From assembly GCA_964415895.1 (NCBI GenBank), contig CAYQCC010000005.1, positions 875-64,874 on the forward strand: DNA of 64,000 nt, written 5' to 3'. The translations under genes and the position numbers were made by a program. This DNA comes from an uncultured Candidatus Saccharibacteria bacterium (GTDB taxonomy: Bacteria; Patescibacteriota; Minisyncoccia; Phycocordibacterales; UBA1006). Each line of letters starts with the position of its first letter. Positions within the stretch are counted from its first letter, which is position 1. A model generated the notes under the pieces. It had not been told where the DNA came from, searched no databases, and saw only the letters and a program-made list of their open reading frames with translations. This document shows positions 3,722 through 61,391 of this stretch, piece after piece.

Positions 3722-4153
3722 TTAGTCAGACTTCCAAGGAGACATGCTCATCAACATATCCTTTATTCCATTTAATACGATCATGATAAATTCAAACGTT
3801 CCCACTACCAAATCTTTCAATATATTATAAAGAACCGTCAGAAATTCATTAATAATTGGAATAACCCATCCTTTTCCAAAAAAGAGGTCATAGGATGCAA
3901 TAAATATAAAGAATAACACCCAAAAGGTTGCTTCAGATCGGTACAGTGAAAAACTGAACAGAAAAATCAACGTAATAATGACTACGACGAGTAATTTCAA
4001 TCCATTAAACGGTCCAAATTCCAAGAGTTTTACGATTCGATCTTTTTTATTATCGTCGGATTTATCTTTGAAATACTTGCGTAGCCACCCAATTCCCTTG
4101 AATATCTCGGATTTTATAAATTCCAAGTCACCTTTTAATGTTGGACGTGCCAT
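3722..4153 (-). CDS. Hypothetical membrane protein
   Basis: 143 aa with two to three predicted TM helices. Confidence 0.45.
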   Translation of the reverse strand: MARPTLKGDLEFIKSEIFKGIGWLRKYFKDKSDDNKKDRIVKLLEFGPFNGLKLLVVVIITLIFLFSFSLYRSEATFWVLFFIFIASYDLFFGKGWVIPIINEFLTVLYNILKDLVVGTFEFIMIVLNGIKDMLMSMSPWKSD

Positions 4154-4495: not shown

Positions 4496-4512
4496 TTATA
4501 ATTATTTTTTAT

Positions 4513-4878
4513 GTTGTCATACCGGACTAGATCCGGTATCCAGTGCATTATTATATTCCAGATAAGTCTTTCCAGTCTGGGTTATCTTTTTCAATCAATT
4601 CGAGCTTCCATAACCGAGGCCATTTTTTAAGCAATTTCTCTCGAGAAATTGCAGATTCAATATCATGACAATGCTCATAGTATACCAGTTTAGATACGTC
4701 ATATTTCGAAGTAAAACTTTTTTCAAAATGCTTAGCTTTATGTTCTTGGATTCTTTTCTCTAAATTGCTGGTAATACCAATATAAATCGTTCCATTTTTA
4801 TTACTAGCGAGTATGTACACATAATAGATTTTATTTTCCATATATCCTGGATGCCGGATCGAGTCCGGCATGACAGCA
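4513..4878 (-). mobile_element. Compact GIY-YIG element bounded by 28-nt hairpin inverted repeats (TGTCATaCCGGACTAGATCCGGtATCCAG ... CTGGATgCCGGATCGAGTCCGGcATGACA). Copy 1
   Basis: The terminal repeats are reverse complements of each other, and the a/t versus g/c differences are compensatory within the hairpin. The same architecture occurs at 57595-57972. Confidence 0.5.
4551..4841 (-). CDS. GIY-YIG nuclease superfamily protein (COG2827/UPF0213-like, URI-domain endonuclease)
   Basis: YYVYILASNKNGTIYIGITSNLEKRIQEHK... is a GIY-YIG motif. An alternative upstream ATG at 4871 lies inside the right terminal repeat. Confidence 0.8.
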   Translation of the reverse strand: MENKIYYVYILASNKNGTIYIGITSNLEKRIQEHKAKHFEKSFTSKYDVSKLVYYEHCHDIESAISREKLLKKWPRLWKLELIEKDNPDWKDLSGI

Positions 4879-25449: not shown

Positions 25450-25637
25450 ATAGTTATATATTTCGGGAACAGGTACTCGAATCTACGGAGCACTTTAAGA
25501 AAAGATCCTAAATGCATGTTGCATAGATACGGCAATACGCGTTCCACTGGACGCCGGTCAAGGCCGCCCGATTAAATGAATAAACATATGGCATATTACG
25601 GAAAAATCGTTACTTGTCAATGGTTTTGCTGTATTTA

Positions 25638-25759
25638 TCTCCTCCTAATTTAGGAGGAGTGCCCAAAGGGCGAGGTGGTATTGTAAGCTTTATTGTGTGT
25701 ACAAAAATACCACCCCGTCTCGTCGTACCTCCTCGCCACCCCTCCTAAATTAGGAGGGG
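25638..25759. repeat. Triple-hairpin palindromic element: TCTCCTCCTAATTTAGGAGGAG ... GGTGGTATT-23-nt loop-AATACCACC ... CCCCTCCTAAATTAGGAGGGG
   Basis: Seen directly. The outer hairpins pair an SD-like AGGAGG with CCTCCT. Lies in the 477-bp tuf/hpf intergenic region. Related partial copies occur at 57545-57562 and 55046-55130. Confidence 0.5.
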
Positions 25760-25944
25760 ATTTCATACATTAAATTATGGTAAACGAGCCTTTAAATATA
25801 AGCTCTTATGAATGTCCTTTATGGCCCTATAATGTCCTTTAGAAAAATAGCCATGGTATACTGAATATGTACCGATTGAATCTCACCGCTGCCCGATTGT
25901 AATCATGCGTCCGAAAAGAGATACGGATGACATTTTCACCAATT

Positions 25945-54799: not shown

Positions 54800-55138
54800 A
54801 TAACTGATTTTTTATTTTTTAAAATATTTGAAATGAATGATTATCAAAACTTCGAGAAAGTCCTGCAAAACCTTGATAATCACTCATTTCTTCAATCAAT
54901 TATATGAATTTAACCTTTACAAAGATCATATGCCTAAAATAGTTATATTTCAGGGCATTTGTTGGCAGTATAGCATATTAGCATATATTTGTCAACCTCT
55001 GCATTATGTGGCATTTTGGGTGAATCGGGGTGCATTTTCCCCTCCCTTATGTAGGAGAGGGCTAGGATTAGGTAGTTCTTTTTAAATACCTCCTCCGGAT
55101 TTCAGCCACCTTATGCTACGTAGGAGAAGGAAAATACA

Positions 55139-55168
55139 TGGATACCAGATCAAGTCCGGTATGACAAC
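55139..55168. repeat. Solo copy of the GIY-YIG-element terminal hairpin repeat (GGATACCAGATCAAGTCCGGTATGACAACC)
   Basis: 26 of 28 match to the 4513-4543 repeat after reverse complement. No GIY-YIG ORF nearby. Confidence 0.5.
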
Positions 55169-55186
55169 CACAAAAAAAGCCGCTGC

Positions 55187-55243
55187 AGTGCAAAATTATA
55201 TTTTCAACAAAATGTTAAACGCATAATTTTGCACTACCGGCTT
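55187..55243 (-). terminator. Terminator for pilB: 13-bp stem (AGTGCAAAATTAT...ATAATTTTGCACT) followed on the minus strand by GCAGCGGCTTTTTTT
   Basis: Seen directly. Confidence 0.55.
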
Positions 55244-55320
55244 ACCTTCCACAGAGACTGTCGATACAGGATCGAAAGAACCTCGCGGTCTCAACTACAA
55301 TATCACATGCGAAATTAATG

Positions 55321-57519
55321 TCACCCTTTCGCCACTAAATTTTCTATGGTGTTTCGAATTTCTCTCAGTTGTGATGCAACACTAACGTTTGGTTTTCGTG
55401 ATTGATGCTGCTCTAGTGATTCTAGTCCACTTACAATCTTTTCAACTTCACTGTGAACAACAACTGTTGGATCATACATGATCCATTTTGAAACATCGGA
55501 ACGAACTAACAGATTTACAATTGTCTCCTTTAGATCAGTAATCTTTTGCTTAATTCCCTGTTCAGGATGCTTGTCTTGTTCTTGTTCAAGTGTCTTTAAA
55601 TAGTCTACCAGCATGATTAATTCCTTTATTGGCAAAACGCTTTCGGTTGCAGCTGTTGTTGATTCAACTAAAGTTCCGTCTTCGGACAGTGCAGCAGGTC
55701 GAAACTCAATATCATGACTCGGTTCTATCACAGGAGAAATTGGTTTTTCCTCGACAACAGTAGGAACACTGACATACGTTTCTGAAACAACAGGAACTGC
55801 TTGCTTATTCCAACCTTCTGGTAGATCTTCTGCCATATCAACCGTACTCTGTACTTCCTCGATTGTGGTAATACCAGATAATATCTTTGAAACACCGTCT
55901 TCTACCATCGTAAAGATTCCTTGGTGTAATGATCCATGTTTGATTTCACGCTCTGTTGGATTATTTGCAATAATATCAGCAACTTTGTCATCCACTAAAA
56001 TCGCCTCGTATAATCCGATTCGTCCTTTGTATCCGATATTGTCACATTTTGGACATCCGACTGGTTTAAACATCTTGAATTCGCTTGTAGCCGTAACGCC
56101 CATATAACTAAAGTCTTTTCCTGTCTCTTCTCCATTTTTAACAATAGCTCGAAGCAACTTTTCTTCGTCAGCGGTTGGCGTATATTCTGCCTTACAATCC
56201 TTACATAAACGACGAATCAGACGCTGTGCCATGGCAACGGTCAACGCATCTGGTAAAATTTTTGGATTCACGCCAAGCTCGATTAAACGCGGAATAGCAC
56301 CAGCAGCATTGTTGGTGTGGAGTGTTGAAAGCACAAGGTGACCAGTAAGGGACGCATTAATAGCAGTACTTGCGGTTTCCTTGTCACGAATTTCACCTAC
56401 CATGATTACATCCGGATCCTGACGCAGTGCTGCACGCAAACCTGAACTAAAATCATATCCTTTATCGTGATCTACCTGTGTTTGTGTCACACCTGGCAAG
56501 TGATACTCGATCGGATCTTCGATCGTTAGGATTTTAATTTCTGGTGTATAGATTCTTTTTAGGAATGAATACAAGGCAGTCGTTTTTCCGGATCCGGTCG
56601 GACCAGTGGTTAGCAACATTCCGTTTGGTTTATCAATTTCTATTTGCAATACATCAAAGAGTTTCTTTTGAATTCCCATTTGTTCCAATTCCACAGTCAA
56701 TCCTTCTGGGTTCAAAATACGCATTACAATTGATTCACCGTAGGGACCTGGAATTAATGATGTACGAATTTCAATCTCCGTACCTTTATACATAATGGTA
56801 AAACGACCATCCTGCGCGGTTGCGGTACTCGTCAATTTCATTTCTGAAAGAAGTTTAATACGCGAGTTAATACTTTTATAAATCTCCAGTGGAAATTCTA
56901 CAATATCTTGAAGCACCCCATCCTGACGAAAACGCAAACGAGAAAAATTCTCGGCAGCTTCGATATGAACGTCGGAAGATTTCGTTCCAATAGCTGCACC
57001 GAAAATAATTTCCATTAACTTGGAAACTTTATGAGCATCTGATGAACCAATCATCGCCATAAACATATCTTTGATATCACTATTGGAATGAACTTGTTTT
57101 GCTAGTTGTTGTAAACCTTCATCAGTAATATCAAGCAGTCCACCGCGAGTTCGAAGCGATCCACTGACATCAGCATAACGCGCCCACGCTTTTTCCAAAC
57201 TTCGCATAGACACTAAATACAGGTGAACAATAAAACCTTTAGTTTCCAAGTTATCAATCTGTTCGATCGCACCTACATCTGTTGGTGATTGCACGGCAAT
57301 ACTTAATTTTTTACCAACCATTCCAAAACAAGCTATTTTTGCAGAGCGTGAAATTTCTTCTGAAATCAATAACAGACCGTCAGTGTTAATTCCAATTCCA
57401 GATAAATCAACATAGCCGATACCATATGTATCAGCCAACGCTTTTACCGCCGCCTCTTCTTGATGAGCATGAATTTCCGCAAGTTTTTTATTCTGTTCTT
57501 CATCGTGGAATACCGCCAT
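55321..57519 (-). CDS. pilB: Type IV pilus / type II secretion ATPase, GspE/PilB family, with a ~170-aa C-terminal extension
   Basis: T2SE_N-like N-domain, Walker A GPTGSGKTT, Asp/His boxes, tetracysteine CPKC...C motif, then extra C-terminal sequence. Confidence 0.88.
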   Translation of the reverse strand: MAVFHDEEQNKKLAEIHAHQEEAAVKALADTYGIGYVDLSGIGINTDGLLLISEEISRSAKIACFGMVGKKLSIAVQSPTDVGAIEQIDNLETKGFIVHLYLVSMRSLEKAWARYADVSGSLRTRGGLLDITDEGLQQLAKQVHSNSDIKDMFMAMIGSSDAHKVSKLMEIIFGAAIGTKSSDVHIEAAENFSRLRFRQDGVLQDIVEFPLEIYKSINSRIKLLSEMKLTSTATAQDGRFTIMYKGTEIEIRTSLIPGPYGESIVMRILNPEGLTVELEQMGIQKKLFDVLQIEIDKPNGMLLTTGPTGSGKTTALYSFLKRIYTPEIKILTIEDPIEYHLPGVTQTQVDHDKGYDFSSGLRAALRQDPDVIMVGEIRDKETASTAINASLTGHLVLSTLHTNNAAGAIPRLIELGVNPKILPDALTVAMAQRLIRRLCKDCKAEYTPTADEEKLLRAIVKNGEETGKDFSYMGVTATSEFKMFKPVGCPKCDNIGYKGRIGLYEAILVDDKVADIIANNPTEREIKHGSLHQGIFTMVEDGVSKILSGITTIEEVQSTVDMAEDLPEGWNKQAVPVVSETYVSVPTVVEEKPISPVIEPSHDIEFRPAALSEDGTLVESTTAATESVLPIKELIMLVDYLKTLEQEQDKHPEQGIKQKITDLKETIVNLLVRSDVSKWIMYDPTVVVHSEVEKIVSGLESLEQHQSRKPNVSVASQLREIRNTIENLVAKG

Positions 57520-57594
57520 ATTAATAAAAGTATATCATATGATGTTTAAATCCCCTCCTAGTTTAGGAACTGAACGCTTGATTTTGAGGTTTGT

Positions 57595-57972
57595 ACTGTC
57601 ATTCCCGCGAAGGCGGGAATCCATTAGGGCTCTACGAAAACGAAAGATCTTTCCATTCGGGATTTCTTTCTTGAATTAATCTAATTTTCCATAATCGATT
57701 CCATTTCTTTAATTTCTTCTCATATTTAATAGCAGCTTCTATACTATTCGTCATTTCATACTAAACCAATAAGTGTAATCCGTATTTATATGTAAATCCT
57801 TTATTGATTCCTTGTTTGTGTTCCACAACTCTTCGTTCAAGATTATTAGTTACCCCGACATAAAGTGTTCCATATTGTTCATTAGTCATAATATAAACAA
57901 AATACATGACATTAATTATATCAGAGATTATTTTACTGATCATGGATTCCCGCCTTCGCGGGAATGACAACA
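57595..57972 (-). mobile_element. Compact GIY-YIG element, copy 2, bounded by a perfect 28-nt inverted repeat (TGTCATTCCCGCGAAGGCGGGAATCCAT)
   Basis: Same terminal architecture as 4513-4878: TGTCAT, a 5-bp GC hairpin, then ATCCA. The hairpin sequence differs from copy 1 but remains self-complementary. Confidence 0.5.
57650..57952 (-). pseudogene. GIY-YIG nuclease gene disrupted by a frameshift
   Basis: N-terminus MISKIISDIINVMYFVYIMTNEQYGTLYVGVTNNLERRVVEHK ends prematurely. The conserved C-terminal ...KKLKKWNRLWKIRLIQERNPEW is readable in another frame of 57650-57760. Confidence 0.6.
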
Positions 57973-58525
57973 GAATTGAAAAACCTTTCCCGAAGGAAAG
58001 GTTTTTCAATTCTGTGCTTAATTGGTTGCAAGGCAAGCCTCATAAGCATTCAAACACAGAAATCTCAAAGACATCTTTTCTGCCCACGAGGGAGCTGAAA
58101 TTGAAGAAAGGAGAAAGGAGAAATCCAGAAGTCGTCCGTTCAAGCAGACGCACCAGACATTCCTACCCGCAAACCCCAGGAAGACCGCGAGATCCCGATC
58201 CCTTTGAGATTTCTATGTTCAAAACTATTATGTAGTTTTATGATTGAAGCATATCATACTAATTATAATATGTCAAGTGCTTCACACTTATCTAACTTTT
58301 TAATTACATTGGTTTGCAATTAAAAATCCAGCAAGACTTAGACTATAACGCGGTTATGAAAATTGCGCAAGCACAAAATATGTGGTTTTTCACCAAGTTA
58401 TCCACAGGCTTTTTCCACATGCTAAATGAGCAATATACCTTTATTTATAAGGATATCTTCCTTATTTTCATGTTTTAAATCTGTATTACTGAAAAAAGAG
58501 ACTTGTATGATATAATGGATTTTAT

Positions 58526-59512
58526 ATGAAATCTTCTGAAAAAATCGAGCGTTCCTTGGACGCAAATCTACGTCCAAATAGCTGGGATGAATACATTGGA
58601 CAGACCACCATCAAACAAAACCTTCATATTCTGATAAACGCTGCTGAAAACCGTGCACAAGTTGCTGAACATATTCTGTTTTACGGTCCACCAGGACTCG
58701 GTAAAACAACTCTTGCCCATTTAATTGCAAATGAAACAGGTCGTGCTATGAAAATTACGTCAGGCCCAGCCATTGAAAAGGTTGGAGACCTTGCAAGTAT
58801 TCTTACCAACATTCAACCAGGTGACATTGTGTTCATCGACGAGATCCATCGCTTGAATAAAATGATCGAGGAAGTCCTCTACCCTGCTATGGAATCTGGC
58901 GTACTTGATATTATTATCGGAAAAGGACCAAGCGCACGAACATTACAGTTGGAACTTCCACCATTCACATTGATTGCAGCAACAACGCGGCCCTCATTGA
59001 TTTCTTCACCATTGCGTTCACGATTTTCAGGTGGAACATTTAAGCTTGAGTTTTATGATGATGCTGAAATGACAGAAATTGTGCGCCGCAGTGCAAAACG
59101 ATTAAATATTATCATCGATGATGAGGCACTTGGTATGATTGCCCGCCGCAGTCGAAAGACTCCGCGTACGGCAAACTACTTCCTGAAACGAGTACGCGAT
59201 TATGCGCAGATCAAGGAAATCGAGCATATAGATGTAGAAACTGTAGAGTCTGCCCTTGATATGATTGGCGTTGATTCATTAGGACTATCACCATCCGATC
59301 GATTATTATTGAAAACTCTTGTCGAGAAATTCAATGGTGGTCCTGTTGGCGTGAAAACACTTTCTGCTGCAACAGGCGAAGAAGAAGATACTATTGAGGA
59401 AGTAATTGAACCATACCTAATTCAGACAGGATTACTTGAAAAGACTCCACGTGGACGATGCGCTACTGAAAAAGCGTATGACCATTTAGGTGTTGCATAT
59501 TTAGGGAAATAA
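58526..59512 (+). CDS. ruvB: Holliday junction branch migration ATPase RuvB
   Basis: LFYGPPGLGKTTLA Walker A, sensor motifs and a C-terminal winged helix. Confidence 0.95.
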   Translation: MKSSEKIERSLDANLRPNSWDEYIGQTTIKQNLHILINAAENRAQVAEHILFYGPPGLGKTTLAHLIANETGRAMKITSGPAIEKVGDLASILTNIQPGDIVFIDEIHRLNKMIEEVLYPAMESGVLDIIIGKGPSARTLQLELPPFTLIAATTRPSLISSPLRSRFSGGTFKLEFYDDAEMTEIVRRSAKRLNIIIDDEALGMIARRSRKTPRTANYFLKRVRDYAQIKEIEHIDVETVESALDMIGVDSLGLSPSDRLLLKTLVEKFNGGPVGVKTLSAATGEEEDTIEEVIEPYLIQTGLLEKTPRGRCATEKAYDHLGVAYLGK

Positions 59513-61378: not shown

Positions 61379-61391
61379 AATAGTTGTTTGA

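Follow-up and report, generated by a model that had tools for sequence, protein, structure and literature searches.

The repeats that Di Nocera, De Gregorio and Rocco described in 2013 (BMC Genomics) as CGTC-tagged repetitive extragenic palindromic sequences (REPs) are intergenic hairpins, mostly arranged as inverted dimers, with a CGTC tag that is often changed to TGTC, a stem of 8-9 bp starting with AT, and a CCA tail (PMC3733652). Class CGTC-1, with a 4-nt loop, includes dRS3 of Neisseria and RPE-6 of Rickettsia, and classes CGTC-2 to CGTC-4 have a 5-nt loop; the repeats never flank the gene of a REP-associated tyrosine transposase (RAYT), and they were said to 'apparently lack a dedicated transposase' (PMC3733652). 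That survey took in five phyla, none of them in the candidate phyla radiation (CPR), and the GIY-YIG nuclease gene went unnoticed. Here we consider a solitary 30-nt hairpin, the solo hairpin, that lies close behind the pilB gene in a 64-kb stretch of contig CAYQCC010000005.1, which we call the window and which belongs to a member of the Paceibacterota; its EF-Tu (HQV64809.1) is annotated as Candidatus Paceibacterota. The solo hairpin is very probably an orphan CGTC/TGTC-tagged REP, the same thing as the Ssn-related motif (SRM) described recently, and tied to nucleases of the SsnA family.

The SRM comes from the work of Chenal et al. (Nat Commun 2025) on SsnA of N. meningitidis, a 94-residue GIY-YIG protein (CDD cd10448) that binds the dRS3-containing sequence NTS, CGTCATTCCCGCGMAVGCGGGAATCYRG (PMC11893778). 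Binding takes place solely on single-stranded DNA, on the strand that reads GTCAT...ATCC; the enzyme cuts a few nucleotides 5' of the tag and is inactive on duplex DNA and on RNA (PMC11893778). For cleavage the GTC that precedes the palindrome is important, and for binding the C that follows it; stem mutations lower binding, and the changes Y6A, Y17A and E64A abolish cutting (PMC11893778). Loss of ssnA increases transformation by NTS-bearing DNA about five-fold (PMC11893778). Among loci of SsnA homologues, 71% carry at least one SRM and 42% carry them on both sides; the NTS-ssnA-NTS layout was likened to an insertion sequence, and the mechanism of spreading was left open (PMC11893778).

How does the solo hairpin compare with these repeats? 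Its sequence, GGATACCAGATCAAGTCCGGTATGACAACC, occupies positions 55140-55169, so that a preliminary description of this DNA had the sequence right and its position (55139-55168) wrong by one base. Read on the minus strand, it has the tag, stem, loop and tail of a CGTC-REP, namely TGTC, an 8-bp stem that begins with AT and contains one G.T pair, a 5-nt loop, and CCA, and it fits the type with an 8-bp stem and a 5-nt loop (CGTC-2-like). The non-palindromic flanks are oriented as in the Ssn/SRM system: the minus strand reads TGTC-ATACCGGACTTGATCTGGTAT-C-CA, with GTC on the 5' side and C directly 3' of the palindrome. There are five hairpins in the window, all of them intergenic and all in one common frame: on the strand that opens with the tag, (T)GTC is followed by an 8-bp stem whose first bases are AT, then by a 4- or 5-nt loop and by CCA. 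Two of the others bracket an intact ssn gene (copy-1) and two bracket an ssn pseudogene (copy-2); the copy-2 hairpins differ from the copy-1 hairpins in stem class and fit CGTC-1.

At up to 3 mismatches, the solo 30-mer has a single other match in the window, the copy-1 hairpin at 4512-4541 on the opposite strand. Against the reverse complement of that hairpin the solo copy differs at 3 of 30 nt; 2 of these lie inside the conserved 28-nt unit, and for this unit the preliminary description was correct in calling the solo copy the reverse complement of the left copy-1 repeat with two substitutions. Dinucleotide-preserving shuffles (n=100) gave no match to the solo 30-mer at up to 3 mismatches, and the match between the solo and copy-1 hairpins is therefore real rather than due to chance. 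If the T-rich outer flank is counted, the similarity between the solo hairpin and 4512-4541 reaches 38 nt at 87%, and a looser pattern also picks up the second copy-1 hairpin, at 4851-4871.

Judged by protein similarity and by the spacing of key residues, both GIY-YIG open reading frames (ORFs) of the window are SsnA homologues. The copy-1 ORF spans 4551-4871 on the minus strand, with the ATG at 4841 as its likely start, and inverted hairpins bracket the gene no more than 10 nt away on each side. Full-length pairwise identity to the N. gonorrhoeae SsnA orthologue, a protein of 94 residues with Y6, Y17 and E64 and with NTS copies around its locus, is 57% for copy-1 and 47% for copy-2. When the copy-1 protein was searched against a plasmid collection with tblastn, two N. 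gonorrhoeae chromosomes deposited as plasmids were found, with one locus each, at E 1e-12 to 2e-12; the criterion for an SsnA homologue in PMC11893778 is tblastn E < 1e-10. Residues Y9, Y20, R30, H34 and E68 of copy-1 are invariant in an alignment of 22 family members, and Y9, Y20 and E68 are the equivalents of the catalytic Y6, Y17 and E64 of SsnA. Copy-2, located by tblastn of the copy-1 protein against the window (57641-57913, minus strand), has Y5, Y16 and E63, with the 11- and 47-residue spacing of SsnA; its in-frame TAG replaces a Tyr of family members. Because an independent Logan assembly (L001), whose 4.3-kb contig ends exactly in the outer hairpin, reproduces the TAG, sequencing error can be discounted and copy-2 taken as a true pseudogene. 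The nearest solved structures to the ssn proteins are those of the uncharacterised UPF0213 proteins 1ZG2 and 1YWL. The preliminary description noted no GIY-YIG ORF near the solo hairpin, which is true of the immediate flanks and overlooks the copy-2 pseudogene 2.4 kb off, beyond pilB.

Table 1. Features of the window discussed in the text
Feature	Position	Strand	Description
Solo hairpin repeat	55140..55169	-	(GGT)TGTC-ATACCGGA-CTTGA-TCTGGTAT-CCA; very probably a CGTC/TGTC-tagged REP, equal to the SRM; 5-nt-loop class
Hairpin 3' of ssn copy-1	4512..4541	+	TGTTGTCATACCGGACTAGATCCGGTATCC; closest relative of the solo copy
ssn copy-1	4551..4841	-	Intact 96-residue single-domain GIY-YIG protein (MENKIYYVYIL...); PF01541, E 2e-18
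Hairpin 5' of ssn copy-1	4848..4875	-	Plus strand TGGATGCCGGATCGAGTCCGGCATGACA
Hairpin 3' of ssn copy-2	57597..57624	+	TGTCATTCCCGCGAAGGCGGGAATCCAT; NTS/dRS3-like, 4-nt-loop class; fits the published SRM pattern
ssn copy-2	57632..57907	-	GIY-YIG pseudogene; PF01541; 53% identical to copy-1; in-frame TAG 57761-57763
Hairpin 5' of ssn copy-2	57942..57969	-	Perfect inverted copy of 57597-57624 (28 nt, 100% complementary)
Intrinsic terminator upstream of the solo hairpin	55170..55243	-	Stem 55243-55177 and U7 55176-55170; RNA fold z -3.8
Separate MITE-like element abutting the solo hairpin	55031..55138		10-nt inverted ends TGCATTTTCC / GGAAAATACA; two CCTCC-type palindromes

The window shares with the Ssn/SRM system a single-domain GIY-YIG protein of about 95 residues, the spacing of its Tyr, Tyr and Glu, the inverted hairpins that bracket its gene, the oriented GTCAT...ATCC frame, and dispersed intergenic copies that have no gene. 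It differs in the CCGGA stem and 5-nt loop of the solo and copy-1 hairpins, and in its host, since the Paceibacterota (CPR) are a group not named in PMC11893778. It also has a low copy number, five hairpins in its 64 kb as opposed to hundreds, and the system is known here from sequence alone. We conclude that the solo hairpin is an ordinary member of a described family, its novelty being confined to its host and to its loop class, which escapes the published pattern.

Does the link between hairpin and nuclease hold beyond this window? The 27-mer hairpin pattern GGATRCCRGATCNAGTCCGGYATGACA was found in four viral contigs and in at least 120 stretches of GTDB genomes. Carriers among the matches listed include Ignavibacteria, Comamonadaceae, Desulfobacterota, Zixibacteria, Saccharibacteria, Andersenbacteria, Woesebacteria, Planctomycetota, Sphingomonadales, Coxiellaceae, Bacteroidota and Omnitrophica, and among these same matches Caenimonas sp. 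SL110 (Comamonadaceae) has more than 14 loci. Loci selected by the hairpin (n=124, about 890 kb, many phyla) hold 262 hairpins of the same design and only 5 GIY-YIG ORFs. Orphan copies are in excess, the majority of copies being gene-less singlets or inverted doublets in intergenic DNA. The stems covary (GCCGGA, TGCGGG, TCCGGC, CCCGGG, CCTGAA). For 96 copies that were detected by the stem-loop alone and had played no part in retrieving the loci, the TGGAT flank is present in 80-90 and ATGAC in 81-89; conservation ends sharply outside these flanks, which gives a unit of 28-29 nt. Where two hairpins lie less than 400 nt apart, they form inverted doublets in 79 of 106 cases, GTCAT..ATCC N10-35 GGAT..ATGAC, with the polarity found in the flanks of ssn genes. 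Clusters of hairpins lie outside long ORFs (137 of 157), more than half are singlets (84 of 157), and convergent gene pairs are over-represented, at 35 of the 101 classifiable clusters versus 22% of all adjacent gene pairs. The ORFs adjacent to hairpins represent 149 different Pfam families. In the 25 families listed for 138 such ORFs, GIY-YIG is the sole nuclease or mobile-element family, and the rest are housekeeping or regulatory. One locus of a Pseudomonadota metagenome-assembled genome (JAZKFI010000001.1; L073, 2448-2932) has a tandem array with a 100-nt period, in which ten hairpins are set as alternating doublets, resembling a bacterial interspersed mosaic element.

The converse approach starts from the protein. 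A profile of the 22 family members led to 80 metagenomic loci, in which a hairpin was sought within 110 nt of the ssn gene and in the correct orientation. Such a hairpin is found upstream in 41 of 75 loci, downstream in 51 of 77, on both sides in 28 of 72 and on at least one side in 58 of 72; with a background of 0.32 hairpins per kb, about 0.02 would be expected per oriented flank. The resulting shares, 81% with at least one hairpin and 39% with both, agree with the 71% and 42% of PMC11893778. When the whole unit of hairpin, gene and hairpin was sought in unrelated contexts, the 80 loci offered only three pairs of related loci, two of which look orthologous. The ssn protein family is very large, with more than 1,476 clusters at E <= 1e-5; among those with a name are proteins of Paceibacterota, Moranbacteria, Chloroflexi and Bacteroidetes, and the contigs of many members are very short. 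Several homologues have a tail, N- or C-terminal, of translated hairpin sequence, for example CHSRESGNP, MSFLRRQESS or WIPNQVGNDAL.

Are the repeats stable residents of their sites? Syntenic contigs of relatives, with the gene order ruvB, pilB, hypothetical gene, and with PilB homologues 91% and 83% identical to that of the window, provide a comparison. On the 3' side of pilB hardly any variation is seen in the 150 nt that follow the stop codon, in the terminator, or in the next gene's promoter. After the U-run of the terminator the relatives have an unrelated short sequence, and the window has instead a block of about 155 nt that consists of the solo hairpin and a neighbouring element resembling a MITE (a miniature transposable element with inverted repeats); both are absent from the relatives (PilB 83-91% identical). 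On the other side of pilB the whole copy-2 unit of hairpin, ssn and hairpin is likewise absent from the relatives; in the window it begins 2 nt past the terminator of a conserved, promoter-bounded non-coding region. The reciprocal case is found between rplN and rplX, where three relatives (L208, at 187-324, L209 and L212) have an inverted doublet in a 138-nt insertion, and where the window (61379-61391) and L214 have an empty site with a spacer of 13-14 nt only. Since relatives differ in the presence and absence of hairpins, the repeats have been gained or lost on the time-scale that separates the window strain from its relatives. This doublet insertion, it may be added, lies inside a ribosomal-protein operon in one lineage of relatives.

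Other features of the insertion sites are less telling. No target-site duplication is visible beside the solo copy, either ssn element or the rplN-rplX doublet. The outer flanks of the 138-nt insertion, about 30 nt each, have no other copy in the loci examined, so that no longer mobile unit was recognised around the doublet. Three insertion sites in this AT-rich genome follow T-runs or terminators. Among hairpins of other genomes, a T5 run lies upstream in 32 of 377, versus 24-37 in three control categories, and a general preference for insertion after T-runs or terminators is rejected, as there is no excess across the 377 hairpins. The preliminary description took the solo hairpin for a terminal hairpin with REP- or MITE-like behaviour. 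The REP-like part stands, given the anatomy of a gene-bracketing repeat, the gene-less copies elsewhere and the absence from relatives. A MITE in the strict sense it is not, because the unit is a single hairpin that lacks terminal inverted repeats beyond the hairpin and lacks a target-site duplication.

The surroundings of pilB deserve a short description. The pilB gene itself, a 732-codon ORF (55321-57519, minus strand) for a PilB-like protein with T2SSE and MshEN domains, lies between the solo hairpin and copy-2. On the minus strand the solo hairpin comes 6 nt after the terminator, a long stem followed by U7, and the preliminary description rightly placed it directly next to the pilB terminator. 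The nearly invariant stretch from the pilB stop codon to the U7 (55170-55320, minus strand) folds well (z -3.8), ends in the long terminator, has no Rfam match, and is possibly a small RNA, or else a structured 3' untranslated region (UTR). The MITE-like element on the other side of the solo hairpin is related to 25637-25761 in the tuf-hpf spacer and to a fragment at 57545-57575; the CCTCC...GGAGG palindromes of the spacer, and their kinship with the tuf-hpf element, were correctly recognised in the preliminary description. This CCTCC-N-GGAGG family has a length of about 110-125 nt, ends of the type TGTATTT..., and two palindromes, and is represented by two full copies and one fragment; two of these three copies abut an Ssn hairpin, and the exact palindrome was not found in 213 other loci searched.

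Upstream of pilB, the ruvB-pilB spacer contains, at about 57972-58277 on the minus strand, a near-invariant block of about 270 nt, with a good promoter of the TTGACA/TATGAT type before it and the terminator CACAGAATTGAAAAACCTTTCCTTCGGGAAAGGTTTTTCAATTCT after it. The block is kept in all relatives, has no Rfam match even at E <= 1, and looks like an undescribed non-coding RNA gene. In the 83% relatives another small element, with terminal inverted repeats of about 30 bp (AACAAAACACCTTGTACAATAATTACTCTT...), stands in place of copy-2 (L208, about 3840-3990), and the ruvB-pilB spacer seems to receive small insertions of several kinds. One contig with an 83% PilB homologue (L210, 3630-5940) runs into Rep_1 and ParA-like genes in place of the gene that usually lies downstream, which may be a chimeric assembly or a junction with a plasmid or integrated element. 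Elsewhere in the window, at 1710-1771 and about 1.3 kb from the end of the 23S rRNA, there is a perfect palindrome of 31+31 nt, GCCCGCACACCCAGAAAAATACGGACCCCGA / TCGGGGTCCGTATTTTTCTGGGTGTGCGGGC.

The window was also searched for known RNAs. ARAGORN and Rfam found only two tRNA-Ser genes, both located elsewhere in the window, and a tRNA T-arm fragment was rejected as the source of the hairpins, as an 8-bp stem with a 5-nt or 4-nt loop does not fit one. A scan of the window at the Rfam gathering threshold gave no known RNA family at the hairpins, and an E-value scan of 54800-58600 gave sub-threshold matches only, among them Francisella FtrB. The consensus of FtrB (Francisella sRNA B, RF02748) contains an NTS-like hairpin, GTCATTCCCGCGTAGGCGGGAATC, and its weak matches (E 0.6-0.9) fall on the copy-2 hairpins (57578-57683 and 57911-57987).

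Several points weigh against identifying the solo hairpin with the SRM and with an SsnA-type partner. We know of no strand-transfer activity of SsnA, a hydrolytic enzyme, and SsnA alone therefore does not explain spread to new sites. The copy number is known for one 64-kb window of this organism, with its five hairpins. The solo stem is mismatched, weakened by one G.T pair on the minus strand (A.C on the plus strand), and folds weakly, with a DNA fold energy on the minus strand of -4.7 kcal/mol versus -7.3 to -10.6 for the gene-flanking copies; as stem mutations are reported to lower binding, the solo copy may be a poor or dead substrate. Finally, the solo copy and both copy-1 hairpins fall outside the published SRM pattern, HGTCWYN(0-2)YYVSBRHN(0-5)WNVSBRGN(0-2)RNCYNB (PMC11893778), which matches the two copy-2 hairpins exactly. 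All three fail at one stem position, because position B is A in CCGGA, so that the 5-nt-loop class owes its membership to its architecture and to the earlier definition of CGTC-REPs. The same pattern misses most 5-nt-loop copies of other genomes, as well as roughly half of the upstream and a fifth of the downstream hairpins detected structurally in ssn flanks. We read the mismatch as a limit of a hand-built pattern and not of the architecture, since these copies agree with the others in tag, tail, polarity and gene association.

Could the solo hairpin be an inert relic? It might be the last hairpin of a deleted ssn element, or have been carried in with a MITE-like insertion, and have no present interaction with an enzyme. 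Such an origin is possible, though we doubt it. The solo copy is a singlet, while inverted doublets are the commonest close arrangement elsewhere; one of its stem pairs is broken and its fold is weak; it forms one lineage-specific block of about 155 nt with an unrelated MITE-like element; and the nearby ssn copy-2 is itself a pseudogene. But the positions that are critical in SsnA targets, the GTC on the 5' side for cleavage and the C right after the palindrome for binding (PMC11893778), are intact. Singlets, moreover, are common in other genomes too, as the 84 of 157 clusters show, and in the same genome a hairpin that flanks an intact enzyme gene is identical to the solo copy at all but 2 of 28 positions. 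A host regulatory hairpin, that is, a second terminator or RNA-stabilising stem-loop for pilB or for the conserved RNA behind it, to which the likeness to the GIY-YIG repeats would be secondary, is an idea to which we give hardly any credence. REPs do act in 3' UTRs, the solo hairpin lies 6 nt after the terminator, and on the minus strand a consensus scan rates it as terminator-like. Yet little transcription should reach the hairpin, because the strong U7 terminator precedes it; relatives with the same 3' region and next-gene promoter manage without it; SsnA does not act on RNA (PMC11893778); and a pure RNA-hairpin role leaves the conserved tag and tail unexplained.

What of a transposase of the classical kind? 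The solo hairpin would then be a singlet of REPs, or of the REP doublets called REPINs, spread by a RAYT (Y1 HUH) encoded elsewhere, and the GIY-YIG genes would sit in, or home into, REPINs. The REP/REPIN-RAYT systems, which are said to go back to Nunvar in 2010, Bertels and Rainey in 2011 and Ton-Hoang in 2012, share with the present repeats the short tagged hairpins, the inverted doublets, a small nuclease gene bracketed by repeats, and the recognition of a single-stranded DNA hairpin on one strand. They differ in the tag, GTAG there and (C/T)GTC here, and in the enzyme, a Y1 HUH transposase with a covalent intermediate there and a hydrolytic GIY-YIG nuclease here. To our knowledge a hydrolytic GIY-YIG nuclease is unable by itself to perform strand transfer, which speaks for a RAYT, as does the resemblance of the doublets to REPINs. 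In addition, Bertels and Rainey assign the Neisseria repeat ATTCCCGCGCAGGCGGGAATC, with a stem as in the copy-2 hairpins, to a Group 2 RAYT (bioRxiv 10.1101/2021.07.10.451892). We nevertheless consider this explanation very unlikely. No RayT-like ORF was found by phmmer, at E up to 10, in the window, in the roughly 890 kb of hairpin loci or in 358 kb of ssn loci, and the query is reasonably sensitive, because it picks up RAYTs of 41-49% identity from Neisseria, Chloroflexota and cyanobacteria. The 25 families listed for the 138 hairpin-adjacent ORFs, a list that covers families with a single member in part, do not include Y1_Tnp. CGTC-REPs and GTAG-type repeats coexist in Neisseria, and no RAYT is flanked by CGTC repeats (PMC3733652). 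In N. gonorrhoeae, GTAG-tagged hairpins (GTAGGTCGGAT...) directly flank the RAYT gene, and the NTS pair closest to this gene is 140-240 nt upstream. With GTAG hairpins at the gonococcal RAYT and no RayT-like ORF near the repeats, RAYT is a poor candidate partner and we reject it as such.

If the solo hairpin is an orphan SRM, as we favour, which enzyme would act on it? The copy-1 protein is the candidate, as the solo copy has its closest relatives in the hairpins that flank copy-1. It would bind the minus-strand hairpin when replication, repair or DNA uptake exposes this as a single strand, with a nick expected around 55170-55178. The solo copy itself may have derived from the copy-1 lineage within this genome and decayed slightly since. 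By analogy with Neisseria, sites of this kind may limit the recombination of incoming single-stranded DNA.

A more far-reaching proposal, which we think unlikely, is that the hairpin-ssn-hairpin unit is currently mobile in small CPR genomes, that solo copies and doublets are its non-autonomous derivatives, and that two of the hairpins form a cassette with pilB. A GIY-YIG single-strand nuclease, in place of a Y1 transposase, would then drive a REPtron-like system that inserts into intergenic DNA, here always just 3' of intrinsic terminators. The hairpins at 55140-55169 and 57597-57624, whose cleavage sides face inward, could form an SRM-gene-SRM cassette around pilB. If so, the cassette would limit the replacement of a pilus/competence ATPase gene by transforming DNA. 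A comparison may be made with the IS200/IS605 elements, which are also bounded by imperfect single-stranded DNA hairpins and cleaved strand-specifically a few nucleotides from the hairpin foot. They differ in enzyme fold and chemistry, and their ends are not inverted copies of each other; their transposition has been demonstrated, while the elements of the window are known as sequences.

The comparison with Neisseria also bears on an attribution made in that genus. In Neisseria, the 'REPIN' population credited to a RAYT and the NTS credited to SsnA are one and the same repeat. The attribution to RAYT deserves re-examination, because the gonococcal RAYT is flanked by hairpins of the GTAG type. 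In N. gonorrhoeae NZ_CP119142.1 (L217, 1050-1750; L216, 1480-1790), the RAYT gene is in two frames, and ssnA has its ATG in another frame than the remainder of its ORF. It may be that ssnA is also defective in this strain, which would bear on the 'REPIN decay in N. gonorrhoeae' of the literature.

What the solo hairpin offers is mainly of value for annotation. Such hairpins yield spurious ORFs (MPDQVRHD, CHSRESGNP), break assemblies, and get mistaken for terminators or small RNAs. A very widespread class with a 5-nt loop (GGATGCCGGATCAAGTCCGGCATGAC and relatives) is associated with ssn genes and yet is overlooked by the SRM pattern, so that the counts of SRMs and of enzyme-site pairs are probably underestimates. 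The Ssn/SRM system is present in Patescibacteria, and the differences in presence and absence among close relatives there are natural material for the study of how these repeats move.

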